From Hyalangium minutum (lineage in GTDB: Bacteria > Myxococcota > Myxococcia > Myxococcales > Myxococcaceae): a stretch of DNA of 64,000 bases. Shown piece by piece: positions 1-29,557 of this stretch. The stretch lies in the NCBI RefSeq assembly GCF_000737315.1, contig NZ_JMCB01000003.1:25394-89393 (forward strand), given 5' to 3'. Both the position numbers and the translations under genes were made by a program. Numbering within the stretch: position 1 is the stretch's first letter; the number at the start of each line of letters is the position of its first letter. The notes under the pieces were generated by a model, which did not search any database, had not been told where the DNA came from, and worked only from the letters and a program-made list of their open reading frames with translations.

Positions 1-807
1 CGCTGGCTCCAGAGCAACTTCATCTTCAATCCCGCCGAGTGTGTCTTCTACTCGGTGGCCCGGGAGATCACCGAGCAGAAGCAGCTGGAGAGCGAGCACC
101 GCCGCGTGGAGCAGCTGAAGGACGAGTTCGTTTCCACGGTGAGCCACGAGCTGCGCACGCCGTTGACGTCCATCCGCGGGGCGCTGGGGCTGCTGAAGGG
201 CGGCATCGCGGGTCCACTGCCCGCGGAGGCCGAGGAGCTCATCTGGATCGCCCAGGACAACAGCGATCGGCTGCTGCGCCTCATCAACGACATCCTGGAT
301 CTGGAGGGGCTGGAGACGGGCCAGCTCTCCTTCAAGCGGGAGCCGCTGCCCTTGGGCGAGCTGGTCACCCAGGCCGTCGTCGCGCAGCGGGGCTACGCGG
401 CGCAGTACGGCGTGAAGCTGGTGGTGGCACTGGACTCCGAGGCGCGGGCCTTGGTGGATGCGGACCGCTTCCTCCAGGTCATGGCCAACCTGTTGTCCAA
501 CGCCATCAAGTTCTCTCCCCAGGGCGAGACGGTGCAGGTCCGCCTGGCGCGGCTGCCGGGCGGCCTGCGCGTCAGCGTGGAGGATCACGGGCCGGGCATC
601 CCCGAGTCCTTCCGCTCGCGCATCTTCCATAAGTTCGCCCAGGCGGACGGCTCGGACACCCGCCGCAAGGGGGGCACGGGGCTGGGGCTGTCCATCACCC
701 AGGCGCTCGTGGCGCGGATGGAGGGCACCCTGAGCTTCGTCTCCGAGGAAGGGGAGGGCAGCACCTTCTTCGTGGTGCTGCCCGAGTGGACGCCGCCGGA
801 GCCTTGA
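1..807 (+). CDS. Sensor histidine kinase, C-terminal part (HisKA + HATPase_c); the 5' end lies outside the window
   Basis: The frame is open from nt 1. An H-box 'VSHELRTPLTSIRGAL' is present, and a HATPase motif is present ('HGPGIPE...GGTGLGLSI'). Confidence 0.85.
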   Translation, partial: RWLQSNFIFNPAECVFYSVAREITEQKQLESEHRRVEQLKDEFVSTVSHELRTPLTSIRGALGLLKGGIAGPLPAEAEELIWIAQDNSDRLLRLINDILDLEGLETGQLSFKREPLPLGELVTQAVVAQRGYAAQYGVKLVVALDSEARALVDADRFLQVMANLLSNAIKFSPQGETVQVRLARLPGGLRVSVEDHGPGIPESFRSRIFHKFAQADGSDTRRKGGTGLGLSITQALVARMEGTLSFVSEEGEGSTFFVVLPEWTPPEP

Positions 808-13627: not shown

Positions 13628-14677
13628 TCAGCTTCGATGCACGGGCAGCGTAGGAGGTATCGCCCCCGAGAGCGCTCGCATCGCCGAGGCCAGGGCTTCC
13701 ACCGTGACCGTGGACTCCGCGGCGCCCAGGCGCAGCGCCGCCTGGGGCATGTGAGGGGCGACGCAGCTCTCCGGGGGCTGCACGAACGTGAGCCCGCCCG
13801 CCCGGCGGATGGCCAGCAGCCCCGCCGCTCCATCCGAGCCCGTGCCCGTCAGCACCGCCCCCGCCGCCCGGTTGCCATGCGCCCGCGCCAGCGAGGTCAG
13901 CAGTGCGTCTCCCATCGCCAACTGCCGCCCGTGGATCAGCTCCACCTGCAGCTCCCCCGTCGGGAGCACCTGCAGCTGGTGCCCGTCCGGTGGCAGGTAG
14001 ACGTGGCCCGCCTCGGGCTTCGTGCCCGTGCGCGCCACTTGCAGCTCCAGCGCCGAAGCCGCGCTCAGCCACTGGCGCAGCCCCGAGGTGAAGCCCACCG
14101 ACACGTGCTGGGCGATGAAGAGCGGGTAGGGGAGGCTCGGCGGCAGCAGGGACAGCAACATCGCCAGCGCCGGAGGCCCTCCCGTGGAGGCCACCAGCCC
14201 AAAGCCGTGCACCCGCCCGCTGCGCAGCACCGGCGGCGGTGTGGGGTGGCTCAGCCGCGGCTTGCGGCTCCCCAAGGGAACCTCCGCCATGGTCCGGATC
14301 GTGTGGATCAACTGCTGGCCGAAGCTCGTCAGGCCCTCCCGGCCCGGCGTGGGCTTGGGCATCACCTCCAGGGCTCCGGCCTGCAGCGCCTTGAAGGACA
14401 GCTCCGCGTCCACCGCCCCGGAGATGACGAGGATGCGGCTGGGCGACTCGGCCATGATGCGCTCGGTGGCGTTGATGCCATCCATCCGCGGCATCCGGAC
14501 ATCCAGCGTGACGACGTCTGGGCGGAGCGCCTGCGCCATCGCCACGGCTTCCTTCCCATCGTTCGCGGTGCCCACCACTCGGATGTCCGGGGCCGCCGCC
14601 AGCAGTCCGGTGAACATCCGCAGGATCGTGGGCGAGTCGTCCGCGATGAGAACCTGGACTGGCCTATTCATGAGCAC
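13628..14677 (-). CDS. CheB-like protein-glutamate methylesterase/deamidase response regulator (paralog 1)
   Basis: Receiver domain 'LIADDSP...LDVRMPRMDG...EVMPKP'. Methylesterase motifs 'ASTGGP', 'AQHVSVGFT' and 'GTGSDG' are present, so the Ser/His/Asp triad is intact. Confidence 0.85.
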   Translation of the reverse strand: MLMNRPVQVLIADDSPTILRMFTGLLAAAPDIRVVGTANDGKEAVAMAQALRPDVVTLDVRMPRMDGINATERIMAESPSRILVISGAVDAELSFKALQAGALEVMPKPTPGREGLTSFGQQLIHTIRTMAEVPLGSRKPRLSHPTPPPVLRSGRVHGFGLVASTGGPPALAMLLSLLPPSLPYPLFIAQHVSVGFTSGLRQWLSAASALELQVARTGTKPEAGHVYLPPDGHQLQVLPTGELQVELIHGRQLAMGDALLTSLARAHGNRAAGAVLTGTGSDGAAGLLAIRRAGGLTFVQPPESCVAPHMPQAALRLGAAESTVTVEALASAMRALSGAIPPTLPVHRS

Positions 14678-14841
14678 CTCGGAGGGCCGTCGAGAGCGCT
14701 GCGGAGGGTGAATGAATAGCCTGGATCCACATGGGCGTCCCCCCTACCCAAGTAGAACGATGATCAGGGTCTGGCCGTCGTGACTTCCGTGGCGAAGTGT
14801 GAACCGACCACCACTTGAGCGAGGGCACCTGCCGCCGTGTT

Positions 14842-15894
14842 TCAGTTCCGAACCGCCGGAGTCACGGGCGCCGCGCCCGTGAACGAGCGCATGGCCGCGG
14901 CCAGGGCTTCGAGCGACAGCATCTGATCCGTGGCGCCGCTGCGCAGCGCGGCCTCGGGCATTCCCGGGACGACACAGCTCTCGGGGCTCTGCGCGAAGGT
15001 CCTCCCGCCCGCCTTGCGGATGGCCAGCAGCCCTGCCGCCCCATCCGAGCCCATGCCCGTGAGCACTGCCCCCGCCGCCCGGTCCCCATAGGCCAACGCC
15101 AGCGAGGACAACAGCGTGTCTCCGAGTGAGGCCTTGCCAACGGGGATCGGCTCGACCTGCAGATCCCCCGCGAGTGTGACTTCGAATTGGTGCCCGTCCG
15201 GCGGCAGGTACACGTAGCCGGGCTGAGGCCGCACGCCCGTCTGCGCCACCTCGAGCTGCAGCGAGGACGCCGCGCCCAGCCACTGGCACAGGCCCGCGGT
15301 GAAGCCCACCGACACGTGCTGGGCAATGAAGATCGGATACGGCAGCTGCGGAGGCAGCAGCGACAGCAGGTGGCAGAGCGCCGGAGGTCCTCCCGTGGAG
15401 GCCACCAGCCCAAACCCTGTCACCCGCCCGCCCTGGGGCGCGGGGGCCACCGGGCTCGGAGCCTGCGCGGGGGCCAGCGCCACCTGCCGCTGGCTCACCG
15501 GCAGCTCGGCCATGGTCCGGATGATGTGGATCAGCTTCACCCCGAAGTTGGCCAGCCCTTCCAGGTTGGGGCGCGGCTTGGGCATGACCTCCAGCGCCCC
15601 GGCCTGCAGCGCCTTGAAGGACATCTCCGCATCCACCGCCCCCGAGATGACGAGGATGCGGCTGGGGGCCTCGGTCATGATGCGCGAGCTGGCCTCGATG
15701 CCATCCATCCGCGGCATCCGCACGTCCAGGGTGATGACGTCCGGCTGCAGCGTGCGTGCCAGCTCCAGGGCCTCGGCCCCATCCTTCGCCGTGCCCACCA
15801 CTTGGATGTCGGCCGCTGACGACAGCAGCGCCGCGTACATCTTCAACATGGTGGGCGAGTCGTCAGCGATGAGGACCCGGATGGTGGAGCTCAT
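14842..15894 (-). CDS. CheB-like methylesterase response regulator (paralog 2)
   Basis: Receiver domain plus 'ASTGGP', 'AQHVSVGFT' and 'GMGSDG'. Confidence 0.85.
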   Translation of the reverse strand: MSSTIRVLIADDSPTMLKMYAALLSSAADIQVVGTAKDGAEALELARTLQPDVITLDVRMPRMDGIEASSRIMTEAPSRILVISGAVDAEMSFKALQAGALEVMPKPRPNLEGLANFGVKLIHIIRTMAELPVSQRQVALAPAQAPSPVAPAPQGGRVTGFGLVASTGGPPALCHLLSLLPPQLPYPIFIAQHVSVGFTAGLCQWLGAASSLQLEVAQTGVRPQPGYVYLPPDGHQFEVTLAGDLQVEPIPVGKASLGDTLLSSLALAYGDRAAGAVLTGMGSDGAAGLLAIRKAGGRTFAQSPESCVVPGMPEAALRSGATDQMLSLEALAAAMRSFTGAAPVTPAVRN

Positions 15895-15971
15895 GTGTGC
15901 ACCTCGGAGGCAGGGGCGAGACTGCCCCAGAAACCGGATTCACGCCATGCACAGGTGAGCCCCGAAGCCCG

Positions 15972-16997
15972 TCAAGCGCCCGAGGACGACATTCCCTCCA
16001 GCTGGCGGATGATGGTGGCCAGCGCCTCTGGGGACACCTTCGTCTCCGTGGACTTGTTGCGCAGCGCGGCCTCCGGCATCGACGGCACCAGGCACGTCTC
16101 CGGATCCTGGGCGAAGGTGAGCCCGCCCGCGCGCTTGATGGCCATCAGGCCCACCGCGCCCTCCTCGCCCATGCCGCTGAGCACCGCGCCCGCGGCGTGC
16201 TGGCCATAGGCTCGGGACAGGGACGCCAGCAGCAGATCCCCCGAGGGGAACGTGGTGCCCGAGGCCTTCTCGATGACGATCTCGCCCTGGAGCCCCACGC
16301 GCAGGTGGTGGCCATCCGGGGCCAGGTACACGGTGCCCGGCCGAGGCTGCTCCGAGGCGCGAGCAATCTCCACCGGCAGCGGAGACAGCGAGGACAGCCA
16401 GCGGTGCAGGCCCACGGTGAAGCCCGGGGTGATGTGCTGAGCGATGAAGACGGGGTAGGGCAGGCTGCGCGGCAGCAGCCACAGCAGCGAGGCCAGCGCC
16501 GTGGGCCCGCCGATGGACGAGAACAGCCCAAAGCCACCGATGCGCCGGCCCGCGGGCAGCGGCGGCGGGTTGGCGTGGCCCTCACGGCGCTTGGTCACCA
16601 GCGGCACCTCCGCCAGCAACCGGATGGCCGACAGCAGGCGTACACCAAAGCGCGCCACATCCTCGGGAGAGCCCTGCGGCTTGGCGATCACCTCCAGCGC
16701 TCCGGCCTGGAGCGCGCGGAAGGACAGATCCGTGTCCGGGGCGCCGGACACCATGAGGATGCGGCAGGGCGTCTCGGCCATGATGCGCTCGGTGGCGCCC
16801 AGGCCATCCATGCCCGGCATCTGCACGTCCAGGGTGATGACGTCCGGCTTGAGGGAGCGCGCCAGGGCCACGGCCTCCTCGCCGTCGCGCGCAGTCCCCA
16901 CCACGGTCACGTCGGGCTGTGCCGACAGCAGCCGGGTGAGGACCTGGAGCATGGTGGGGGAATCGTCGGTGAGGAGGACTTGGATGGGCTTGCTCAT
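15972..16997 (-). CDS. CheB-like methylesterase response regulator (paralog 3, with the catalytic Asp position replaced by Glu)
   Basis: Receiver domain plus 'FSSIGGP' and 'AQHITPGFT'. The triad Asp motif reads 'GMGEEG' instead of the usual 'GMGxDG'. Confidence 0.8.
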   Translation of the reverse strand: MSKPIQVLLTDDSPTMLQVLTRLLSAQPDVTVVGTARDGEEAVALARSLKPDVITLDVQMPGMDGLGATERIMAETPCRILMVSGAPDTDLSFRALQAGALEVIAKPQGSPEDVARFGVRLLSAIRLLAEVPLVTKRREGHANPPPLPAGRRIGGFGLFSSIGGPTALASLLWLLPRSLPYPVFIAQHITPGFTVGLHRWLSSLSPLPVEIARASEQPRPGTVYLAPDGHHLRVGLQGEIVIEKASGTTFPSGDLLLASLSRAYGQHAAGAVLSGMGEEGAVGLMAIKRAGGLTFAQDPETCLVPSMPEAALRNKSTETKVSPEALATIIRQLEGMSSSGA

Positions 16998-17090: not shown

Positions 17091-19304
17091 TCACCCGGCC
17101 TTGCGTTTCTTTTCACGCCGGGGACTGGCCTCAGGGGAAGGTGGCGAAGGGGGCAGGGCCGGCCGAGTCGAGGGGAAGGGCGTACCATCCGTGGGGCCGG
17201 TTTCTACCCCCGGTACTTCCGCCGGGAGAGCGGGCAGGCGGATGACGAAGGTGCACCCCTCGCCGGGTTTGCTGTGCACGGCGATGCTCCCCCCGTGATT
17301 CTTGACGATGCGCTGGCAGATGGCCAGCCCCAACCCTGTACCCTTTTCCTTCGTGGTGAAGAAGGGCACGAAGATGTGCTGTTGCTGGTCCAACGGAATC
17401 CCTGGCCCGGTGTCCGAGACGTGAACCTCGACGAACTCGTTGACGGTGCCGCCGCGGAAGTCTCCGAAGCGGTCCTGCTTCACGGTGCCCACGGTGATGC
17501 GCCCGCCCGGAGTCCCAATGGCCTGCACCGCGTTCTGGACCAGGTTGATGAGCACCTGCTTGAGCTGCTCTGCATCTCCGTCCACGCGCGGCGCCGTGAG
17601 GTCCAACTGGACGGCCAGCTCGATCTGCTTGGGCACATCGTTCTGGATGAGGCGCATGGTGCGGGTCACCACCTCATTGAGGTCCGTCTGGCCAAAGTTT
17701 TGCTTCAGCGGCCGAGCGTAGTCCAGGAACGCCGTCACCACGCCATTGAGGCGGTTGACCTCTTCGACGATGACGCCCAGGAACTCGCCGTCCTCGCCCG
17801 GGAGCCGCTTCGGATCCAGGCACTGCGCCGCGCCCTTGATCGCCCCCAGGGGGTTGCGGATCTCGTGCGCCAGGCCCGCCGCCATCTCGCCCAGGGCCGC
17901 CAGGCGGTCGCGCTCGCGGATCTTTTCATACAGCTTGGAGTTCTCCAGCACCGTTGCCAGGCGCTCGGCCACCGTGAGGATGAGGGCGATCTCGTCCGAG
18001 GCGTAGGCCTCCGGCACGCGCTCGTCCCACAGGTTCAGGAAGCCGATCACCCGATCGTTGCCCACCAGCGGCACGGAGATGCCGGACTTCATCTGCAGCA
18101 GCGCGGCGCGCGTGTCCTGCAGGCGCTTGAGCTCGTCCCGGAAGCGCTTGCCCTCGGCCGCGTGCATTCGCAGCGCCGCCAGCCGCGTGTCCACGTTCTC
18201 CAGCAGCACCGCCTTCTGCCCCGAGGCCGCCGCCAGCAGCAGGCCGCGCGCCGCCGCCGTGTCCAGGAAGCCCTCGGGCGGAGGGCCGCGTGAGTCCAGC
18301 AGCCGGTAGCCCGGACGATCCTCCGCCATCATGTACACGGAGGTATGGGTGACGCGGCCCGTCTCGTGGAGCGCGTCCAGCACCATCCGCGTCACCTCGG
18401 AGATGTCGATCACCGTGGCCATGCGCGCCCGGAGGTTCCCGAGCACTCGCAGCAACTCGAAGCGCTCGCGGAAGAAGATGGCCACCACCTGCTCGTCCAC
18501 CTTCACGCGCAGGGGCTCCATCAGGATGATGGTGACGAAGGCGGCCACCACCGTGTTGAAGACGAAGAGGCTCGCGTTCTCCTTCACCCACACGGTCAAC
18601 ACCGTGAAGACGGCGGCCAGGATGAAGGCCAGCACCGTCTGCGAGGCGATCTTCCCCAGCAGCTCGTGCAGGTCCATCAGCCGCAGCCGCAGCAGCGTCT
18701 GGGAGAGGAAGAACAGGTACATCGTGGAGAAGATGGGCCCCAGCGGCGGCAGGGGAATGTCGTAGCGCCGGCCCACGAGGTCCACGGCCGCGAGGACGAT
18801 GGTGACGCCTGCGCCCAGGGCCAGGTACATCAGCCGCAGCCGCTCGATGCGCGATTGCTGGCTGCGCACCTGGTTGAGCAGCAAGCTCACCGAAGTCAGC
18901 AGGGTACCGAGCACCCAGACGCTCACCGCCACGCGCGCCCAGTTCTGCTGCGCCAGCGGCGTCACCGCCACCGCCAGCCCGAACACGCCTGAGAGCAGGG
19001 CGAGCCGCCGGCCCTGCATATGGGCCTCTTTGCTGACGCCCAGGAACTCCAGGAAGAAAGAGACGGCTGACAGGGGGACAAGCGAGGCGAACAGGATGGT
19101 GGCGCCCACCGCCGTTCTGGACACCCAGCCGGGCTCGGGGAAGATGCCCGCGAAGAACAGCGCCAGGTAGTACCCCGCCACCGTGAGGGCGAAGACGGAA
19201 TACAGTGTCACCACCCGAGGGCGGCCCGGCCGCAAGAGCATGGCGAGCCCGAGCGCCAGGCCGACGAGGGATGCAAGCAGGGCGCTCTGAGTGCGGATGT
19301 CCAT
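17091..19304 (-). CDS. Membrane sensor histidine kinase (about six N-terminal TM helices, GAF, HisKA, HATPase_c)
   Basis: Multiple N-terminal hydrophobic helices. A GAF-like region is followed by 'LAHEIRNPLGAI' (H-box), then 'DTGPGIP' and 'GTGLGL'. Confidence 0.85.
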   Translation of the reverse strand: MDIRTQSALLASLVGLALGLAMLLRPGRPRVVTLYSVFALTVAGYYLALFFAGIFPEPGWVSRTAVGATILFASLVPLSAVSFFLEFLGVSKEAHMQGRRLALLSGVFGLAVAVTPLAQQNWARVAVSVWVLGTLLTSVSLLLNQVRSQQSRIERLRLMYLALGAGVTIVLAAVDLVGRRYDIPLPPLGPIFSTMYLFFLSQTLLRLRLMDLHELLGKIASQTVLAFILAAVFTVLTVWVKENASLFVFNTVVAAFVTIILMEPLRVKVDEQVVAIFFRERFELLRVLGNLRARMATVIDISEVTRMVLDALHETGRVTHTSVYMMAEDRPGYRLLDSRGPPPEGFLDTAAARGLLLAAASGQKAVLLENVDTRLAALRMHAAEGKRFRDELKRLQDTRAALLQMKSGISVPLVGNDRVIGFLNLWDERVPEAYASDEIALILTVAERLATVLENSKLYEKIRERDRLAALGEMAAGLAHEIRNPLGAIKGAAQCLDPKRLPGEDGEFLGVIVEEVNRLNGVVTAFLDYARPLKQNFGQTDLNEVVTRTMRLIQNDVPKQIELAVQLDLTAPRVDGDAEQLKQVLINLVQNAVQAIGTPGGRITVGTVKQDRFGDFRGGTVNEFVEVHVSDTGPGIPLDQQQHIFVPFFTTKEKGTGLGLAICQRIVKNHGGSIAVHSKPGEGCTFVIRLPALPAEVPGVETGPTDGTPFPSTRPALPPSPPSPEASPRREKKRKAG

Positions 19305-19412
19305 GTTCGGGAGAACAGTCTAACCTGTGTCCACGTCCGGAAATTTTTTGAGTGGTCCCAGTTGTCCTCGGGCGTGCCCGAGCACATCCACCAGGGCTCA
19401 GTGTCCGCCCCC

Positions 19413-21833
19413 ATGAAATCCGCCCTTTCGCTGATTGCCCTCGTTTCTTTCGCGCAGCTGGCCTCGGCCCAGCCGGTGGCCGATGCCCCGGCCACGGCTC
19501 CGCAGCCGCGCACTGACGGCGCGCCGCCCGAGGCGCAGCTGCGTCCCCTCCCGGACACGGAGACGGCACCGCTGCCCCCCGGCTACGTGGAGATCTTCAA
19601 CCCCGCGTTCCCGCTGCCCGTGGTGATGGCGCCTCCCGCCAAGAAGGAGGAGGCCAAGGCAGAGGTTCCGCGCGGCAAGGCCTACGGGCTGGACGAGCTG
19701 ACGCCGTACTTCGCCGCGGGCAAGAAGAAGGAGGCCAAGGCCGCCTTCGACAAGGGCTTCTACCTGAAGGCCCGGGAGCTGCTGCAGGACGAGGGCAACT
19801 CGGCGCCGGTGCGTTACCTGCGGGCGCTGAGCGCGGTGCGCGCGGGAGATGATGTCCGCGCGGCCAGCGAGATGGCCTCCCTGGCGGAGGACTACCCGGC
19901 GCTGCGGGATCGCTGCCTCACGCACGCGGGCATGGCGCTCGAGGATCTGAGCCGCTTCGACGAGGCGGCGAAGCTGCTCGACCAGGTGTCGCAGGACTCG
20001 AAGCTGTACGTGGATGCGCGGCTGGCGCTCGGGCGCGTGCTGCGCAAGAAGAAGGACTACGACGGGGCCATGGCCGCGCTCACGCCGCTGGCGGATCGGC
20101 CCGCGCCGCTGTTCGGCCGCAACGTGGGTGCCGAGGCGCTCATGGCCATCGCCGACATCGCGGTGGAGAAGAAGGATCGCAAGCGCGAGCAGGAGGCGCT
20201 GTGGCGGCTGTGGTCCCTGTACCCGCTCTCGCCGCTGACCAAGCAGGCCGATCGTCGGCTCAAGGGCATCAAGCCCCCGGTGGACGCCCAGGTGGCGCGC
20301 GCCGAGCAGCTCATCGAGCTGCACCGCAACAAGCAGGGCCTCACGGTGCTGGAGCCGCTGCTGACTGCGCTGGCGCTGCCGGATCCGCTCGCCTGCCGCG
20401 CGCACTTCGCCTACGGCAAGGGCCAGCGCAAGGAGCGCAACCACACGAAGGCCATCTCCGTGCTCACGCCGGTGGTGGACAAGTGCCAGGATGCGGATCT
20501 GCTGCCGCGCGCCATGTACGTGCTGGGCTCCTCGCGCTCCATCGTGGACCAGAAGCGTGGCCCGGAGACGTACGAGCGGCTCGCGCGCGAGTTCCCCGGC
20601 CACTCCTTCGCGGACGACGCGCTGTTCTACGCCGCTGACCTGTACGTGAAGACGGATCGGCCGGGGCAGGCCCTGGAGCGGCTCCAGGAGCTGGAGAAGA
20701 ACTATCCGCAGGGCGACTTCCTGGGCGAGGCGCTCTTCAAGGCGTACTGGATTGCACGCACCTCGAAGGTGCCGGACGGCGGGCTGCCCATCCTGGAGCG
20801 CATCGAGAAGCGCTTCGCTGACGCGGACGAGACGTACGACGTGGAGCGGGCCCAGTACTGGCGGGCGCGGACATTCCTGGAGCGCGGCAACAGCAAGGAC
20901 GCCGTGGCCCTCTTCGAGCGGCTCGCGCTGGAGCACCCGGCCACGTACTACGGGCTGATGGCCCGTGCGCAGCTGGGCGAGATGGACAAGGAGCGCTTGG
21001 AGAGCATCGGTCCGCAGCTGGTGTTCACCGCGGAGCGTGCCAGCCCGTGGCCTCTGCACACCGGTCCCGCCATGGAGAAGGATCCGCACTTCCTGGCGGC
21101 CGTGGAGCTGCTGCGCCTGGGCTTCCCCGAGGCCGTGTCCTCCGAGCTGCTCGCCGTCAACCGCAACGGCCTGCCCACCGAGCCCGTGCGGCTCATCGTT
21201 CATCTGCTCTCGATGGCGGGGGACCAGCGCGCGGCGCACGCCGTGGCGCGCGTGTCCCTGCGCAGGGATCTCAGCGGCCGCATCACTCCGGAGACGCGGC
21301 CGGTCTGGGAGATCGCCTATCCGAATGCGTACCGCGAGCTGATCGAGAAGCACACGAAGGAGGCCGGGGTGGAGCCGGATCTCCTGCAGGCGCTAATGCG
21401 CGAGGAGAGCGCGCTGGACCCCAAGGCCCTGTCGTGGGCGGGAGCGCTGGGGCTCACCCAGCTGATGCCCACCACGGCGAAGGCGGTCGCGCAACAGTTG
21501 AAGATCAAGCGCTTCCGCGTGGAGTCCCTGCTGGATCCGGACATGAACATCCGCATCGGCGCGCACCACCTGGGCGAGCTGGTGAAGAAGTTCGGCGGCA
21601 ACGCGCCGTTCGCGGTGGGCAGCTACAACGCCGGCGCCGGAGCGGTGAACCGCTGGCGCTCCGAGCGCAGGGGCATGCCGCTGGATGCGTGGGTGGAAGA
21701 GGTGCCGATCGCGGAGACGCGCGGCTACATCAAGCGCGTGCTGCGCTCCTACAACACCTACCAGCTCCTCTATGGCCGTCCGGCCAAGGCCTCTGCGGTG
21801 AAGTCCGCGGGCCTAGTACCGGGGGCTCGCTAG
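19413..21833 (+). CDS. Soluble lytic murein transglycosylase (Slt70-like; superhelical N-domain plus C-terminal SLT domain)
   Basis: Signal peptide 'MKSALSLIALVSFAQLASA'. The SLT catalytic region reads 'EESALDPKALSWAGALGLTQLMPTTA'. Confidence 0.85.
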   Translation: MKSALSLIALVSFAQLASAQPVADAPATAPQPRTDGAPPEAQLRPLPDTETAPLPPGYVEIFNPAFPLPVVMAPPAKKEEAKAEVPRGKAYGLDELTPYFAAGKKKEAKAAFDKGFYLKARELLQDEGNSAPVRYLRALSAVRAGDDVRAASEMASLAEDYPALRDRCLTHAGMALEDLSRFDEAAKLLDQVSQDSKLYVDARLALGRVLRKKKDYDGAMAALTPLADRPAPLFGRNVGAEALMAIADIAVEKKDRKREQEALWRLWSLYPLSPLTKQADRRLKGIKPPVDAQVARAEQLIELHRNKQGLTVLEPLLTALALPDPLACRAHFAYGKGQRKERNHTKAISVLTPVVDKCQDADLLPRAMYVLGSSRSIVDQKRGPETYERLAREFPGHSFADDALFYAADLYVKTDRPGQALERLQELEKNYPQGDFLGEALFKAYWIARTSKVPDGGLPILERIEKRFADADETYDVERAQYWRARTFLERGNSKDAVALFERLALEHPATYYGLMARAQLGEMDKERLESIGPQLVFTAERASPWPLHTGPAMEKDPHFLAAVELLRLGFPEAVSSELLAVNRNGLPTEPVRLIVHLLSMAGDQRAAHAVARVSLRRDLSGRITPETRPVWEIAYPNAYRELIEKHTKEAGVEPDLLQALMREESALDPKALSWAGALGLTQLMPTTAKAVAQQLKIKRFRVESLLDPDMNIRIGAHHLGELVKKFGGNAPFAVGSYNAGAGAVNRWRSERRGMPLDAWVEEVPIAETRGYIKRVLRSYNTYQLLYGRPAKASAVKSAGLVPGAR

Positions 21834-21866: not shown

Positions 21867-23257
<1,391 letters not shown>

Positions 23258-23261
<4 letters not shown>

Positions 23262-23851
23262 TCGAAAGTGCCGTCCTGGTTCTGAACCGGAACTACCAGC
23301 CTGTCCACGTCACTTCCGTCAAGCGCGCCTTCTCCTTGCTGTACCAGGGCGTGGCCAAGGCCATTGACGACCAGTACCGGCTCTACGAGTTCGCCGACTG
23401 GGCCGCGCTGAGCGCCACCACCGACTGCATCACCACGGTGAACCGCTCCATCCGCGTGCCCCGCGTGCTGGTGCTCTCTGTCTACGAGTACCTCCCCAAG
23501 GGCCGGGTGCGCTTCTCACGTCTCAACATCTACGCGCGCGATCACGACACCTGCCAGTACTGCGGGCGCACCCTGCCTCGCTCGGAGCTGAACCTGGATC
23601 ACGTGCGGCCTCGCTGTGACGGAGGCAAGACGACGTGGGAGAACGTTGTCTGCTCGTGCGTGCCCTGCAACCTGAGGAAGGGCGGGCGCACCCCGGAGCA
23701 AGCAGGGATGAAGCTGCTGCGGAGACCTTTCCGCCCGAAGTGGACGCCGCTGTTCCGCGGAGCCATCCGGCGTGTCACCTACCGTGAGTGGTTGCCCTTC
23801 CTGAGGGTAGAGGACGCCTCTTACTGGAACGTGGAGCTGCTGGACGAGTAG
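23258..23851 (+). CDS. HNH endonuclease
   Basis: 'CQYCG...LDHVRPRCDGGKTTWENVVCSCVPCN' is an HNH zinc-finger motif. The start overlaps the selA stop (ATGA). Confidence 0.8.
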
Positions 23852-23993
23852 CGCGGCCCCGGTCCTCTGGGGCCGAGTGTGGCCGATTTTTCTCCGAGTG
23901 GGTCCCCGAGGGGCACGGATGCGTCCGTGCTCCAGACATCCGGGCCGAGGCTCGCCCCCCATGGCGAGCCCTGCGGCAGGGAAGGGGACACAC

Positions 23994-25646
23994 GTGAAAC
24001 AGAATCGGTTGCTGATGCTGGGCGCGCTCGCGATCGTCTTCAGCCTCGTGGGCTGTGACTGCGGCGGCGGAGATTCGAAGCCTCCCATCGAGGAGCCGGA
24101 CGGCGGTACCACTCCCTCGGATGGGGGAACGGACATCCCCGACGGAGGCCCCGGCTCGGTGTGCCTGGCGCAGGGGGCGGCGTGCAGCCGGACCTCGGGG
24201 GCCCAGTGCTGTAACGGCGTGTGCGGCGCGGACAATGTGTGTCCGGCGCCCAATGAGCTCTGCAAGAGCCCCAACGAGGTCTGCCAGACGGGCGGCGAGT
24301 GCTGCACCAATATCTGCTCGAACGGCAAGTGTGCCTCCAACCTGTGCAAGGACGTGGGCCAGGCCTGCGCCACCGCCGAGGACTGCTGCACCAAGACATG
24401 CACCGGCGGCACGTGTGCGAACGTCCCCGGCAACGTCTCCAGCTGCAAGGTGCTGGGCCAGGCTTGCGCCTCGGGCGCGGAGTGCTGCTCCACCAACTGC
24501 CAGGGCGGCGTGTGCACCCGCGCCTATACCTGCAAGGCCTACGGGGACGTGTGCCTCACGGACGCGGAGTGCTGCGGCCAGTCGTGCTCCTCGCCGGACG
24601 GTGTCACGGCGGGCCGCTGCGAGTTCATCACCGGCGGTGGTGGCGGTGGCTGTCGGCAGGACGGCAACCCGTGCTCGGGTGGCTCCGGGTGCTGCTCGCG
24701 CACCTGCGTGGATCTGGGCTACGGCGCCACGGTCTGCCAGCCCGTGGGGGGCTGCAAGCTCACGGGTAACGCCTGCAACGCGGCCAATGACTGCTGCGGC
24801 GGCGGGACCAACCCCAACGGCTCGGTGACGTGCGCGGGGGGACGGTGCGACAACGGCCAGAGCTGCAACGGCGTGGGCAACATCTGCGGCTCCGGCAAGC
24901 TGCCGGATGGTGGCACCACGGACATCAACGCCTCGCAGAACTGCTGCGACGGCCGCAAGAACGTCTGCAAGGTGGACTCCTCGGGCGTGCCCCGCTGCTT
25001 CGGCGGCGGCAGTACCCAGTGCCCTACGGGCTACACGGGCACCGCGCCGTGCTGCATCAACGATGGCCAGAACTGCCAGTTCTCCGACCAGTGCTGCGGT
25101 GACGCCCTCTGCCTGCCCAACGGCAGCGGCGGGCTGAGCTGCCAGCGGCCCACGTGCTCGCCGGTGGGGGCTCCCTGCACCTCCGAGGCTGGCGGCACCT
25201 CGGCCTGCTGCGCGGGCTCCAGCTGCTTGCCGGTGGACGAGCTCAACTTCGCCTGCCAGGCCCCCCGGCCGCCCACCAGCGGCACGGATGGCGGCACCGG
25301 CGGGACTCCGGACGCGGGGCCGGCGTGTAAGGCCAACGAGACGGCCTGCACCTCGCCCTCGCAGTGCTGCTCGGGCATCTGCACGGGCGGTCTGTGCAAG
25401 CCGCCCGCCCTGTGCCAGCCGCAGAACGGGGCCTGCACCTCGGGGGCGGACTGTTGCCAGGGGCTGCGGTGCGACGTGCCGTCCGGCTCCACGACGGGCA
25501 CCTGCCAGCCGGGCGCCGCATGCTCGGCCAGCGGCCAGGCGTGCTCGCCCTCGGTGGGCTGCTGCTCCGGCCTCAGCTGCGAGACGGCCTCCGGGACCGC
25601 CTGCGACGGCACCTCGGCGTGCCTCTGCATGGTGATCCTCAACTAG
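23994..25646 (+). CDS. Lipoprotein composed of about 15 myxococcal Cys-rich repeats
   Basis: Lipobox 'FSLVGC'. The ~30-aa unit 'C..G..CC...C.GG.C' recurs throughout. The GTG start at 23994 has a 'GGAAGGGGA' SD sequence upstream. Confidence 0.75.
   Translation: MKQNRLLMLGALAIVFSLVGCDCGGGDSKPPIEEPDGGTTPSDGGTDIPDGGPGSVCLAQGAACSRTSGAQCCNGVCGADNVCPAPNELCKSPNEVCQTGGECCTNICSNGKCASNLCKDVGQACATAEDCCTKTCTGGTCANVPGNVSSCKVLGQACASGAECCSTNCQGGVCTRAYTCKAYGDVCLTDAECCGQSCSSPDGVTAGRCEFITGGGGGGCRQDGNPCSGGSGCCSRTCVDLGYGATVCQPVGGCKLTGNACNAANDCCGGGTNPNGSVTCAGGRCDNGQSCNGVGNICGSGKLPDGGTTDINASQNCCDGRKNVCKVDSSGVPRCFGGGSTQCPTGYTGTAPCCINDGQNCQFSDQCCGDALCLPNGSGGLSCQRPTCSPVGAPCTSEAGGTSACCAGSSCLPVDELNFACQAPRPPTSGTDGGTGGTPDAGPACKANETACTSPSQCCSGICTGGLCKPPALCQPQNGACTSGADCCQGLRCDVPSGSTTGTCQPGAACSASGQACSPSVGCCSGLSCETASGTACDGTSACLCMVILN
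24050..25620 (+). repeat. Tandem in-frame repeats encoding Cys-rich modules
   Basis: Periodic 'TGC TGC' / 'GGC GGC' codon patterns recur about every 90 nt. Confidence 0.6.
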
Positions 25647-25688: not shown

Positions 25689-26705
25689 GTGGGCGCTTTG
25701 AAGCCCGCACCTGTTCCCTCCGCGTCGGTCTCTCCCACTCCTTCACCCATCCCCGGTCCGCCGGGGCTCTCCAAGCGCGCGCGCCCTCGGCGGGTCATCG
25801 CCGTGGGCGGCGGCAAGGGGGGCATCGGCAAGACGCTCGTGTCGGCCAACTTGGGCATTGCCCTGGCGCAGGCGGGCATGCGCGTGCTGCTGGTGGACGT
25901 CGACCTGGGCGGCGCCAACCTCCACACCTGTCTCGGGGTGGGCCAACCGAACGCGACGCTGTCGGACTTCGTCCGCAGCAGCAAGGTCCAGATCGAGGAC
26001 ATCATCATCCCCACCGGTGTGCCCCAGCTGTCGCTGATCGCGGGCGCCCAGGACGCGCTGGACGCGGCCAACCTCAAGTACGCCCAGAAGCAGAAGCTGC
26101 AGCGCGCGCTCATGGCCCAGCAGGTGGACTACCTGCTGCTGGATCTGGGGGCGGGCACCAGCTTCAACACCCTGGATTTCTTCCTGATGGCGGACCACGG
26201 CGTGCTGGTGGTGCTGCCCGAGCCCACCGCCGTGGAGAACGCCTACCGCTTCGTCAAGGCGGCCTTCTTCCGCCGGCTGCAACAGGTGGAGGCGCAGTAC
26301 GGCATCGAAGACCTGGTGGAGAGCGCTCTCACCACGCGCGAGGGGGCCCTGCGCACGCCGCATGACTTCATCGCTCAGGTGCGCCAGCATGATCCCAACG
26401 CGGGCGCCCGGCTGGAGCGGGATCTGCAGTCGTTCCGCATCCGCCTGGTGGTGAACCAGGCCCGCACGGACGCGGACATGAACGTGGGCACCGCGGTGGT
26501 GTCCGCTTGGAAGAAGTTCTTCGGCCTGGAGATGGATGAGCTGGGAGCCATCCGGTACGACGACGAGGCCTGGCGCGCGGTGCGCAAGCGCAGGCCCATC
26601 CTCCTCGAGCGTCCCGACTCGGCCGCCGCCCAGGGACTTCAGCGCATCGCTGCGCGTATCCTGACCCTCGATAGCCCCGGAAGCGCCGGGTTTTCCACGC
26701 CATGA
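25689..26705 (+). CDS. MinD/ParA-family P-loop ATPase with an N-terminal Pro-rich extension
   Basis: Deviant Walker A 'GGGKGGIGKT', then 'LLVDVDLGGANL'. Confidence 0.8.
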   Translation: MGALKPAPVPSASVSPTPSPIPGPPGLSKRARPRRVIAVGGGKGGIGKTLVSANLGIALAQAGMRVLLVDVDLGGANLHTCLGVGQPNATLSDFVRSSKVQIEDIIIPTGVPQLSLIAGAQDALDAANLKYAQKQKLQRALMAQQVDYLLLDLGAGTSFNTLDFFLMADHGVLVVLPEPTAVENAYRFVKAAFFRRLQQVEAQYGIEDLVESALTTREGALRTPHDFIAQVRQHDPNAGARLERDLQSFRIRLVVNQARTDADMNVGTAVVSAWKKFFGLEMDELGAIRYDDEAWRAVRKRRPILLERPDSAAAQGLQRIAARILTLDSPGSAGFSTP

Positions 26706-28279
26706 AGCCTTTCGAGCAGCAGACCTATTACGAGCTCCTCGAGATCCCCGTCTCCGCGCCGGACGAGGAGATCCGCGCCGCTTACACCCGGGCCCTCGAG
26801 ACGTACGCGCCTGACTCCGTCGCGGTGTACGCCCTGGTGGATCCTGGCCAGGTCGATGCTTTGCGCGCCCGGCTCACCGAGGCGATGGAGATCCTCACCG
26901 AGCCGGACCTCCGCGCCGAGTATGACCGGATGATCGGCGTGAGCCGCGCCGACTCGAGTGCCGTGAAGGCCCTGACCCCCGCGCTGGCCGCGGCTGCTCA
27001 GTCCGTCCCGTCCCAGGAGACTTCCCAGCCTCCCGCCGCTCCAGCGCCCGAGGCCGCTCCTGCGGCGCAGACGCCCGCTTCCGCGGTGGTGGCGGCTCCC
27101 TCCGCGCCTGAGCCCGCCCCGGCGGCTGCTGCTTCGGCTGCTTCGGCTCCCACTCCCACCGCTTCGTCTGCCCCGGCCTCCACGCCTCCCCAGGCTGAGC
27201 CTGTCGCAGCCCCTGCGCCCGCTGCGCCTGCGGTTGCCGCACCCACGCTTGCCGTGCCCGAGGCTCCGTTGGGGATGCCGGGGATCGTCACGCCGAGCCA
27301 GGTCCATGCGGCGTTCCGCAGCTATGCCATTTCGTATGTGCCCGTGCTGGTGCCCGCGCCCGCGCTGATCAGCACCGCGGTCGCCTCGCCGTTCGTGGCC
27401 TCGGGGCAGGCAGAGGCGGCACCTCCCGCACCGGAGGCACCGGCTGCCGCGCCCGCGGCTCCGGCTCCCGAGGCTGTCGCGGCCCGGGCCGTCGAGCCGG
27501 TACCTCCCGCAGCTGCTCCTGCGAGCACGGCCAGCGCAGCACCTCAGAGTGCAACGAGCACTCCCGCCGCCACGTCCGTTGCATCCTCTGAGCCTGCCGC
27601 TGTTTCCACACCCGCCCCCGCGCCGGTGGCTGCCTCGCCAGCGCCTGCCCAGGTGCGGGTGAACGACGAGGACGAGGTCTCCGGAGTCCGGGCCCCGCTG
27701 CCCGAGCGGAAGGAGACGCCTGCCGCGGCCTCGCAGCCCACAGCCACGCCTCCCGCGCCGCCCGAGCGCCTCACGCGGCCTGTTCCCACGCCGCCGCCGC
27801 TGCCTCCCGGAGGCCGCCGCCCCGCGCGCCCGGCCGGCCCACCGACGCCCGTTCCCAGGGCTGACGCAGGGAAGGGGAGCGCGCGTCCGGGCTCGGGTCC
27901 GGGCATGGACCTCGAGGAGGCTCAGCAGATCGCCCAGGAGACCGCCATCGCCACGGCGGAGGCGGCGCTCGCCCAGGTGGCCGCCAAGGCGCGTGAGCCG
28001 AGGCCCAAGCCCATCGAGCTGCCCCCCAACACCGAGTTCAACGGCGAGGTGCTCCGGCAGGTCCGCGAGAGCCGGGGCCTGTCGCTCTCGCAGCTCGCCG
28101 AGCGCACGCGCATCTCCAGCAAGCACCTGGAGAATGTCGAGGCGGACCGCTACACCGCGCTCCCCGCCACCGTGTACCTGCGCGGCATCCTCATGAACAT
28201 CGCCCGCGAGCTCGGGTTGGATCCGCTCAAGGTCTCCCGGAGCTATCTGACTCTGGCCGCAGGGCCGAAGAAGAAGTAG
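26702..28279 (+). CDS. J-domain protein with a long Pro/Ala-rich linker and a C-terminal RodZ-like helix-turn-helix
   Basis: 'YYELLEIPVSAPDEEIRAAY' is J-domain-like. 'LRQVRESRGLSLSQLAERTRISSKHLENVEADRYTALPATVYLRGIL' is an HTH_25/RodZ-type HTH. Overlaps the upstream ATPase gene (ATGA). Confidence 0.7.
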   Translation: MKPFEQQTYYELLEIPVSAPDEEIRAAYTRALETYAPDSVAVYALVDPGQVDALRARLTEAMEILTEPDLRAEYDRMIGVSRADSSAVKALTPALAAAAQSVPSQETSQPPAAPAPEAAPAAQTPASAVVAAPSAPEPAPAAAASAASAPTPTASSAPASTPPQAEPVAAPAPAAPAVAAPTLAVPEAPLGMPGIVTPSQVHAAFRSYAISYVPVLVPAPALISTAVASPFVASGQAEAAPPAPEAPAAAPAAPAPEAVAARAVEPVPPAAAPASTASAAPQSATSTPAATSVASSEPAAVSTPAPAPVAASPAPAQVRVNDEDEVSGVRAPLPERKETPAAASQPTATPPAPPERLTRPVPTPPPLPPGGRRPARPAGPPTPVPRADAGKGSARPGSGPGMDLEEAQQIAQETAIATAEAALAQVAAKAREPRPKPIELPPNTEFNGEVLRQVRESRGLSLSQLAERTRISSKHLENVEADRYTALPATVYLRGILMNIARELGLDPLKVSRSYLTLAAGPKKK

Positions 28280-28358
28280 TCGGCGCACAACGGCAGGCGT
28301 GGTAGGACTTGCCGTTAAAGTTGACTGGCCGCATTTCCGTCCCTATGAAAGAAGCGCA

Positions 28359-28622
28359 ATGACAGAGGAAGAAAAGGTCAAAGCGATGCGGCTCGCCCGC
28401 GCCATTGCCTCGGACATCTCGCTCTACAACGAGCAGAAGATCATCAAGGGCATTGAGCAGGACAACCTCTTCGAGGTCCTCAAGGACGAGCTCGACGAGG
28501 GGCGTGAGCTCTACAAGAGCCGCGTGAGCGCCGAGATCTTCACGAAGACGAACTTCTTCGAGCGGGCCATCAACGACATCGTCCTGCGCTCCAAGGCGCA
28601 CGTGAAGTCGAAGATTTGGTAG
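28359..28622 (+). CDS. Small conserved hypothetical protein
   Basis: Coding-like 87-aa ORF whose stop overlaps the TTG start of the rluD-like gene. Confidence 0.5.
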   Translation: MTEEEKVKAMRLARAIASDISLYNEQKIIKGIEQDNLFEVLKDELDEGRELYKSRVSAEIFTKTNFFERAINDIVLRSKAHVKSKIW

Positions 28623-29557
28623 CTCCCGAAGCGCGCGAGCACCAGGCCCCGCCCGAGGCCCGTGGCGAGCGGCTGGATCAGCACCTCGCGCGCGCCCATC
28701 CCGATCTCACCCGGTCCCGTCTCCAGGGGCTCATCGAGGCGGGCCACGTCCAGGTGGACGGCCGGCCCGCGAAGGCCTCGCTGCGGCTGCGCGGCGGTGA
28801 GCGGCTCTCCCTCCACATCCCCGCGCCCGTGGCGGCCGTGCCGGTGGCCGAAGCGCTGCCGATCGACGTGCTCCACGAGGATCGGGATCTCGTCGTGGTG
28901 AACAAGGCGGCGGGCATGGTGGTGCACCCGGGGGCGGGGCACGCCTCGGGGACGCTGGTCAACGCGCTGCTGCACCGGGTGAAGGATCTGGCCGGAGTGG
29001 GCGGCGAGCTGCGGCCGGGCATCGTCCACCGGCTCGACAAGGACACCACGGGGTGCCTCGTGGTGGCGAAGAACGAGCGGACGCTCGTGGCGCTGCAGAA
29101 GGCCTTCAAGACGCGCGCGGTGGAGAAGACGTACCTGGCGCTGGTACACGGCCACCCCAAGCCCGAGGGCCGCATCGAGACGCTGTACGGGCGCCACCCG
29201 GTGCACCGGCAGAAGTTCACCGGCAAAGTCAAAGAGGGCAAGCCCGCGATCACGGTGTACCGGACGCGCGAGCTCTTCGAGGGCGCCGCGCTCGTCGAGG
29301 TGGACCTGCTGACGGGCCGCACGCACCAGATCCGCGTGCACCTGGCCGAGGCGGCGCATCCGCTCTTGTGCGATGCGTTGTACGGCGCCGGGCGCAAGGC
29401 GAAGGGGCCAGTGCTCGAGGCCCAGGAGGCGCTGGGGCGCCAGGCGCTGCACGCGTGGCGGCTCGCGTTCACGCACCCGCGGACGGGCAAGGCGCTGAAG
29501 CTGGAGGCGCCGCTGCCCGCGGACTTCGAAGCAGCAATCGCGCGTCTCCGCAATTGA
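28616..29557 (+). CDS. rluD: RluA-family 23S rRNA pseudouridine synthase (RluD-like, with N-terminal S4 domain)
   Basis: S4-like region 'RLDQHLARAHPDLTRSRLQ', and the catalytic motif 'HRLDKDTTGCLVVAKN'. Confidence 0.8.
   Translation: MVAPEAREHQAPPEARGERLDQHLARAHPDLTRSRLQGLIEAGHVQVDGRPAKASLRLRGGERLSLHIPAPVAAVPVAEALPIDVLHEDRDLVVVNKAAGMVVHPGAGHASGTLVNALLHRVKDLAGVGGELRPGIVHRLDKDTTGCLVVAKNERTLVALQKAFKTRAVEKTYLALVHGHPKPEGRIETLYGRHPVHRQKFTGKVKEGKPAITVYRTRELFEGAALVEVDLLTGRTHQIRVHLAEAAHPLLCDALYGAGRKAKGPVLEAQEALGRQALHAWRLAFTHPRTGKALKLEAPLPADFEAAIARLRN

Follow-up and report, generated by a model that had tools for sequence, protein, structure and literature searches.

The ParA/MinD ATPases organise bacterial cells, and each of the known systems is defined by its partner protein. 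FlhG and FleN are MinD-type ATPases for flagellar number and placement, FleN being in addition the anti-activator of FleQ; MinD-MinE, ParA-ParB and PomZ-PomX/PomY are further systems in which an ATPase gene is coupled to that of a partner with a conserved, Lys-bearing N-terminal peptide, the partner serving to stimulate hydrolysis of ATP. In a 64,000 nucleotide (nt) stretch of the Hyalangium minutum genome, referred to throughout as the window, a FlhG/FleN-like ATPase gene is coupled to a partner gene in the same manner, and the partner likewise begins with such a peptide (K2 of MKPF), but it is of a different kind, combining a J-like domain, a disordered linker and a RodZ-type helix-turn-helix (HTH); it is termed the J/HTH protein below. 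Directly downstream of its gene lies romX, which was absent from the initial annotation and is the most informative part of the context. The reading that we put forward, tentatively and with a little short of an even chance of its being right, is that the three genes form a polarity-linked cassette of Myxococcaceae-type myxobacteria, with the J-like domain of a RomX-linked scaffold as the presumed target of the ATPase.

Five ParA/MinD ATPases have been counted in Myxococcus xanthus, of which two are characterised and three uncharacterised, and PomZ illustrates that Myxococcus uses systems of a ParA/MinD ATPase plus partner (PMC11407121, a 2024 review). The theme itself is already known; what is new here is the unprecedented architecture of the partner (no description of a ParA/MinD partner built from a J fold without the histidine-proline-aspartate, or HPD, motif and a RodZ-type HTH was found in the literature searched), together with a previously unnoticed, invariant link to romX.

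The closest described relatives of the ATPase are FlhG and FleN. They provide the top sequence matches in the PDB (93-100 bits, the best being FleN, 5j1j, at 100 bits) and the best match to the AlphaFold2 (AF2) model (42 orthologs; mean predicted local distance difference test, pLDDT, 80.6), with a template modelling (TM) score of 0.85 normalised to the target and 26% identity, followed by MinD and Soj. The deviant Walker A, a DxDLGxAN switch I and a PEPT motif are held in common, whereas the ATPase of the window lacks a C-terminal membrane-targeting helix, carries a helical insertion of ~50 amino acids (aa) and has a different kind of partner. To our knowledge myxobacteria do not have flagella, and the N-terminal activator motif of the DQAxxLR type, which we take to be a feature of FlhG, is not in the ATPase sequence. 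The MinD/ParA systems differ in that this ATPase falls far short of the cut-offs of the NCBIfam MinD and ParA models, and no MinE-, ParB- or PomX-like domain is present here.

The partner resembles described proteins at both of its ends. Its C-terminal domain shares with RodZ, a morphogenetic protein that binds MreB, the HTH_25 fold, with a root-mean-square deviation (rmsd) of 1.0 A to the RodZ of 2WUS, and the helix-4 motif Y-x-x-G-hydrophobic; in RodZ, however, the HTH is N-terminal and is accompanied by a transmembrane helix and a periplasmic DUF4115 domain, whereas here it is C-terminal and neither of the other parts is found. At the N-terminus the likeness is to J-like proteins without HPD (Pam16/Tim16, plastid ARC6 and cyanobacterial Ftn2-ZipN), in which the J fold is a protein-docking module and not an Hsp70 activator, ARC6 and Ftn2 acting in the same division-site pathway as MinD. 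It is also to CbpA-CbpM, in which the J-protein binds DNA and its J-domain is bound by a modulator encoded in the operon (3UCS is among the fold matches found here). None of Pam16/Tim16, ARC6, Ftn2 or CbpA has a RodZ-type HTH or a pairing with a MinD-type ATPase gene, and the kinship shown is that of the J fold only. TopJ of Mycoplasma, which consists of a J-domain with a functional HPD, a long Pro-rich acidic region and a C-terminal domain, belongs to the polar terminal organelle and is needed for gliding; it gives a weak NCBIfam match through its J-domain (E=0.0017) and is alike in architecture only, having no HTH_25 and no ATPase partner.

The ATPase and the J/HTH protein

Two open reading frames on the + strand were confirmed, 25689..26705 (338 aa, GTG start) and 26702..28279 (525 aa), and for both proteins identical database entries exist from this species (P0121 for the ATPase and P0001 for the J/HTH protein). 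The features of the ATPase gene are as follows.

25689..26705, + strand: MinD/FlhG-type deviant-Walker-A ATPase, 338 aa (Pfam, NCBIfam and PDB matches, AF2 fold)
25689..25787, + strand: Pro-rich disordered N-terminal extension (first 33 aa 30% Pro; pLDDT <50 for aa 1-30)
25815..25835, + strand: deviant Walker A motif KGGIGKT, aa 43-49, with signature Lys43 (G40-K48 invariant in 42 orthologs)
26259..26429, + strand: helical insertion of ~50 aa, aa ~191-247 (FleN alignment skips from query 191 to 242; conserved in orthologs)
26702..26705, + strand: ATGA start/stop overlap from the ATPase gene to the J/HTH gene (sequence; the same -4 spacing in 97 of 114 ATPase loci)

The initial annotation had described a deviant-Walker-A ATPase with a Pro-rich N-terminus, translationally coupled to its partner through ATGA, and both descriptions hold, the former through the Pfam matches (ParA/NUBPL PF10609 67.7 bits, AAA_31 60.3, CbiA 51.3), the KGGIGKT motif and the Pro content, the latter through the overlap at 26702-26705. 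The protein has the hallmarks of the ParA/MinD superfamily, namely the deviant Walker A with its signature Lys and a MinD/Soj-type fold with the Asp residues of switch I and Walker B. D70 and D72 of switch I and D152 of Walker B are, like the Walker A motif, invariant in the 42 orthologs, and with all catalytic motifs thus conserved the ATPase looks, from its sequence, to be an active enzyme. It is not MinD proper, which is ruled out by scores below the cut-offs of the NCBIfam MinD models (TIGR01968 93.3 against 212.9 bits, TIGR01969 101.9 against 201.75; the ParA, MipZ and BcsQ models score lower than these) and by the absence of a C-terminal amphipathic membrane-targeting helix, the last core helix (312-328 in the AF2 model) being followed by 10 disordered residues. 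Nor is it FlhG/FleN proper, as ruled out by its non-flagellar neighbours, with no flhF or fleQ, and by both termini.

Two further regions set the ATPase apart. The N-terminal extension ends in a conserved basic stretch, GPPGLSxRxRPRR, just ahead of strand 1, with R30, R32 and R35 invariant or nearly so in the 42 orthologs. The insertion region, predicted by AF2 to fold into helices at 179-204, 207-215, 217-220, 224-234 and 236-247, is not present in FleN, FlhG or MinD; the helix just before the insertion is the partner-binding site at the dimer interface in MinD-type ATPases, as in MinD-MinE and MinD-MinC. From its position beside MXAN_3349 and MXAN_3350 we infer that the gene is the ortholog of M. 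xanthus MXAN_3348. Many database calls of the ATPase gene (P0133, P0142-P0146 and others) are 300 aa long and seemingly begin at an internal GTG just before Walker A; such a start would remove strand 1 and the conserved basic stretch, and these starts are therefore probably mis-called.

The J/HTH protein can be divided as follows.

26702..28279, + strand: J/linker/HTH protein, 525 aa, ortholog of M. xanthus MXAN_3349 (Pfam; J-domain sequence in Data Set S4 of PMC11019930)
26702..26941, + strand: J-like domain, aa 1-80, without the HPD His (Pfam DnaJ, AF2, fold matches)
26804..26851, + strand: J-domain patch, aa 35-50 (YAPDSVAVYALVDPGQ), HPD-loop equivalent plus extra helix, candidate ATPase docking site (covariation)
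26942..27910, + strand: Ala/Pro-rich disordered linker, aa 81-403 (29% Ala, 22% Pro; pLDDT mostly <50)
27290..27355, + strand: short conserved linker motif, aa 197-218 (..SQVHAAFRSYAISYVP..) (three alignments; AF2 short helix aa 198-204)
27911..27991, + strand: conserved amphipathic helix before the HTH, aa 404-430 (..AQETAIATAEAALAQV..) (AF2 helix, pLDDT 72-87; A415-A424 nearly invariant)
28043..28261, + strand: RodZ-type HTH (HTH_25), aa 448-520 (Pfam HTH_25 PF13413 71.5 bits, aa 451-508; AF2 confident)

That the N-terminus is J-domain-like, as the initial annotation had it, is supported by Pfam DnaJ (PF00226, 36.4 bits over aa 8-75 against a gathering cut-off of 27.8), by an AF2 model of aa 1-80 (82 homologs, pLDDT >90) with four J-type helices and an extra short helix, aa 40-44, after the HPD-equivalent loop, and by Foldseek matches to many J-domains (TM 0.67-0.85 normalised to the target). 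The annotation had also raised the possibility that the domain would fall below the profile threshold for want of an HPD; the threshold is passed, and the HPD is indeed absent, the position reading A36-P37-D38 in the alignment to E. coli DnaJ. Across 224 relatives, drawn as family members from two database searches, the His position is Ser in 95, Ala in 76, Gly in 35, Asp in 12 and His in none; in one representative (P0380) the letters HPD occur somewhere within the first ~90 residues, as letters only. A conserved peptide, MKPFxQQ, precedes the J-like fold, with K2 in 212 of the 224. The His of HPD is needed by J-domains to stimulate Hsp70, and helix II of canonical J-domains is basic. As no relative has the His and the domain is acidic, with a net charge of -9, a canonical Hsp70 co-chaperone is unlikely, and the domain is J-like and not a canonical J-domain.

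A link to Hsp70 of some other sort has nevertheless to be weighed, since MXAN_3349 is reported to co-immunoprecipitate with both MxDnaK1 and MxDnaK2, with the interactions confirmed by split-luciferase, and its expression falls on heat shock as does that of DnaK2 (PMC11019930); the study reports binding and no stimulation of the DnaK ATPase. Together with the predicted J fold and a Pfam DnaJ score above the threshold, this would fit a specialised class C Hsp70 co-chaperone or adaptor that recruits DnaK1 or DnaK2 (SglK) to whichever site or client the HTH specifies, be it DNA, MreB or RomX/RomR, with the ATPase as a neighbour or secondary regulator. We regard this as unlikely, though deserving of some weight. 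In addition to the missing His and the charge of the domain, its long disordered linker could make the protein a client of DnaK in a pull-down, and a genome-wide fitness screen found the profile of SglK to be matched by SgmC alone and not by MXAN_3349 (bioRxiv 10.64898/2026.08.28.747804). SgmC itself (MXAN_1106, the predicted SglK partner) was considered as the M. xanthus ortholog and ruled out, being 892 aa long, with an HPD and a different sequence. In the literature searched MXAN_3348 was in no paper found, MXAN_3349 appeared only in the DnaK interactome study (PMC11019930), and neither a functional study of the pair nor anything relevant on RomX together with MinD or on MXAN_1104-1107 was found.

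The linker varies greatly in length between species, the whole J/HTH protein ranging from 252 to 661 aa across loci, and in H. minutum its low-complexity Ala/Pro character and disorder are as first annotated, its true length being 323 aa and not the ~250 aa given then. Within the linker motif Y212 is nearly invariant. The partner has no transmembrane segment and Pfam finds no DUF4115 in it, so that it is taken to be soluble.

The C-terminal domain, for which a RodZ-like HTH_25 had been proposed from the start, is placed there by both its Pfam score and its fold. Its best sequence matches in the PDB are RodZ cytoplasmic domains, 4GQM (Chlamydia RodZ) and 3FYM (YmfM) and then 2WUS_R, and the model superposes on Thermotoga maritima RodZ from the MreB complex (2WUS_S, TM 0.80, rmsd 1.0 A) and on Staphylococcus aureus YmfM (3FYM, TM 0.80). 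The partner is not RodZ proper, as the NCBIfam RodZ models give 18-47 bits against cut-offs of 208-375 and the HTH is C-terminal with nothing after it. For the nucleoid association that the initial annotation had raised as a possibility, it is of note that the best-known ligand of the RodZ-type HTH is MreB rather than DNA. Two aromatic residues in helix 4 of RodZ are, as we take it, contacts to MreB; in helix 4 of the partner Y492 is invariant, and the second aromatic position is Ile, Phe or Met.

The same domain also matches the XRE-clan models HTH_19, HTH_31 and HTH_3 and the structures of SinR and ClgR, and the HTH region is basic (net charge +6). Since the closest solved relatives of the ATPase are FleN, including the FleN-FleQ complex, and a conserved promoter-like box lies just downstream of the J/HTH gene (see below), the pair could be a transcriptional one in the manner of FleN-FleQ, the J/HTH protein being a DNA-binding regulator of the XRE type, with romX or the operon as possible targets, and the ATPase its ATP-dependent anti-activator. 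We think this improbable: the top matches of the HTH in both sequence and fold are MreB-binding RodZ domains, a linker of 100 to >450 aa and a J-like domain would be unusual in a simple repressor, no operator-like repeat was seen, though none was searched for, and FleN binds the AAA+ domain of FleQ, whereas the J/HTH protein has no such domain.

Gene order, romX and covariation

Synteny was examined in 162 loci (75 species-representative genomes, 7 protein look-ups and 80 metagenomes), all of them Myxococcaceae-type genomes or similar metagenome contigs and hence a single family-level clade; in a library clustered at 50% identity, the J/HTH family as a whole counts 487 representatives with E<=1e-30. 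The neighbours are, in order, selA, an HNH gene, a Cys-rich lipoprotein gene, the ATPase gene, the J/HTH gene, romX and rluD. Downstream of the pair the window contains the following.

28321..28349, + strand: promoter-like box TTGACT-17 nt-TATGAA (ends 9 nt before the romX ATG; no Shine-Dalgarno sequence; kept in distant loci)
28359..28622, + strand: romX, 87 aa, RomX subunit of the RomR/RomX exchange factor for MglA, MXAN_3350 (PDB 8ZNA)
28616..29557, + strand: RluD-type pseudouridine synthase (Pfam PseudoU_synth_2 120 bits plus S4; start overlaps the romX stop)

The small open reading frame that begins 79 nt past the end of the J/HTH gene matches the crystal structure of RomX over its full length (8ZNA, residues 1-87, 164 bits, E=3e-48), and R11, R14 and D19, which are the MglA-contact residues of RomX (bioRxiv 10.1101/2024.02.20.581209), are present. 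With RomR, RomX forms the exchange factor and polar recruitment factor of the polarity GTPase MglA (PMC7332107). In all 122 loci with enough downstream sequence romX is the next gene after the J/HTH gene; a search with RomX returned only proteins at least 86% identical, and the linkage counts cover this clade. Of the 135 loci that allowed a judgement, 114 have the ATPase gene immediately before the J/HTH gene, 97 of them with the 4-nt overlap, and in the remaining 21, which represent ~10 distinct sequence lineages, the HNH or Cys-rich gene takes its place. In lineages that lack the ATPase, either 1-3 nt separate the J/HTH gene from romX or the two genes share 4 nt. As ~10 lineages have the J/HTH gene without the ATPase, the invariant core is J/HTH-romX(-rluD) and the ATPase is an accessory, if frequent, addition. 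In most loci the two genes are a cognate pair, and this, with the covariation described below, fits the idea in the initial annotation of a ParA/MinD ATPase that works with a partner; the exceptions are the lineages in which the J/HTH gene occurs without the ATPase.

One metagenome contig (L076 553-1704, protein P0098, JGI Ga0633541_00497942) encodes an in-frame fusion of the J/HTH protein to a full-length RomX, small indels, seen against L077 and L078, having removed the J/HTH stop; this is a single contig and a sequencing error is possible. A second candidate fusion, in L073, was ruled out as the J/HTH frame crosses romX out of frame. In that genome bin (L073 5980-7508) the J/HTH frame is without its usual stop, either as a real extension or through an assembly error.

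The presence of the ATPase gene is mirrored within the J-like domain. In a comparison of distinct J-like sequences, 95 from ATPase-bearing loci and 17 from loci lacking the ATPase, Q7, Y35, S39, A41, Y43, L45, D47 and Q50 were found to be at least 80% conserved in the former and at most 35% in the latter, whereas the fold-core residues Y10, L13, A19, A27, R30, L54, A61, L65, R71, Y74 and D75 are conserved in both. A motif over aa 38-45 occurs in 104 of the 114 ATPase loci, the ten exceptions still having A-x-Y-x-L, and in 0 of the 21 without. The HPD-loop region is the Hsp70-binding face of real J-domains, and the simplest reading of a patch on this face that is conserved only alongside the ATPase is that it is the face to which the ATPase binds. 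Decay of the patch exactly where the ATPase gene is missing would be unexpected were the partner a ubiquitous DnaK, and so bears against the co-chaperone reading set out above.

It could be argued that the ATPase, J/HTH protein, RomX and RluD are functionally unrelated and owe their compact order to descent from the ancestor of one family. All 162 loci do come from such a clade, order and overlaps are just as conserved for selA, the HNH gene and rluD, and romX often has a promoter-like box of its own. Against this, the 4-nt overlap of the pair has been kept while the linker changed several-fold in length, the loss of conservation tied to absence of the ATPase is limited to one patch, coupling of the J/HTH gene to romX is tighter in the most divergent lineages, and there is the possible fusion to RomX. 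We consider descent alone to be the least probable of the explanations discussed here.

The region upstream of romX takes two forms. Among the distinct regions with a spacer of 50 nt or more, 58 of 63 have a box of the form TTGACN-16..18-TAnnnn that ends 7-11 nt before the ATG, mostly without a Shine-Dalgarno sequence, whereas with a spacer below 25 nt 39 of 42 have a Shine-Dalgarno-like sequence and no such box, and romX is tightly coupled to the J/HTH gene. A stricter regular expression matched 19 of 128 regions, and a strict sigma-70 consensus scanner reported no promoter in the region, the box having emerged only from the comparison of loci. Judged by its sequence, romX of H. minutum probably has a promoter of its own as well, from which a near-leaderless mRNA would be made.

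How the cassette may work

In the reading that we prefer, the core would be a soluble scaffold, the J/HTH protein, encoded beside romX, to which most lineages would have added an FlhG/FleN-like MinD-type ATPase, gained directly upstream and translationally coupled to it. The ATPase in its ATP-bound form would dock on the J-like domain through the face that in ordinary J-domains contacts Hsp70, here an HPD-loop region with no His and an extra short helix, and the N-terminal MKPFxQQ peptide may also take part in binding. Nucleotide cycling of the ATPase would then set where, or in which state, the scaffold acts, as in MinD-MinE, ParA-ParB, PomZ-PomX and FleN-FleQ. The C-terminal HTH would hold the J/HTH protein on its own scaffold, either MreB filaments, by analogy to RodZ, or DNA, and the output would bear on the RomR/RomX-MglA module of polarity and motility. 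What the comparisons above show is the build of the two proteins, the coupling of their genes, the constant linkage to romX and the covariation of the patch with the ATPase; from these we infer physical binding between the ATPase and the J/HTH protein, the ligand of the HTH and the effect on polarity.

A number of observations weigh against this reading. Few events of gain or loss may lie behind the lineages that lack the ATPase, in which case the covariation represents fewer events than sequences. As all loci belong to one family-level clade, the conserved gene order is in part common descent, and rluD, which has no obvious functional link, is placed as tightly as romX. The promoter-like box in the window and in most Myxococcaceae means that romX need not be co-transcribed with the pair, which weakens the case for strict co-expression. 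Just one (Y492) of the two aromatic residues that we take to be MreB contacts in RodZ is retained. Finally, the reported binding of DnaK1 and DnaK2 by MXAN_3349 points to a chaperone link (PMC11019930).

Should the ligand of the HTH be MreB, a more specific form can be given to the proposal. MglA-GTP binds MreB at focal adhesions (PMC4508894), and the J/HTH protein could be a soluble RodZ-like adaptor to MreB that ties RomR/RomX, and hence MglA-GTP, to MreB at the poles and focal adhesions, the ATPase positioning or releasing it through the J surface that once served Hsp70. In this specific form we rate the proposal as improbable, on a par with the FleN-FleQ-like transcriptional pair.

Flanking genes and the polarity of Myxococcus

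Outside the cassette, rluD lies downstream of romX in every locus that extends far enough; its position in the cluster is conserved and its function is probably unrelated to the cassette. On the other side selA (selenocysteine synthase) overlaps the gene of a 197-aa HNH endonuclease by 4 nt (window 21867-23851, +), a pair kept upstream of the cassette in nearly all loci, and is followed after the HNH gene by a terminator-like hairpin (23871-23884), the sole one reported by the scanner in the region. The Cys-rich gene (window 23877-25646, +) encodes a protein of 589 aa that bears a lipoprotein-type signal (..LVGC) and matches nothing in Pfam or NCBIfam, and lies between the HNH and ATPase genes only in some lineages (Hyalangium, Archangium and Pyxidicoccus).

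Further from the cassette the window encodes a 773-aa homolog of the eukaryotic major vault protein (30824-33145, +; Pfam MVP_shoulder 154 bits, with Vault, Vault_2, Vault_3 and Vault_4), which is 92-93% conserved in two other Hyalangium-like loci (L001 and L002) and was not detected in the fetched flanks of the remaining loci. There are also three tandem paralogs of CheB-type response-regulator methylesterases (13628-16997, -), of 341-350 aa each, with a GAF histidine kinase at 17091-19304 and a TPR-SLT lytic transglycosylase at 19362-21833 next to them.

Two open questions in the polarity of Myxococcus are what brings RomR/RomX to the poles and what couples MglA-GTP to MreB (PMC7332107, PMC4508894), and the ATPase and J/HTH genes are candidate new parts of this system. 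The cassette offers an evolutionary example in which a surface that bound Hsp70 has apparently been re-used for another ATPase. If the J/HTH protein does prove to be an adaptor to MreB on whose J surface the ATPase docks, it would be the first J fold recruited as a partner module of a ParA/MinD ATPase, and the pair would provide a missing spatial determinant of the front-rear polarity of Myxococcus.

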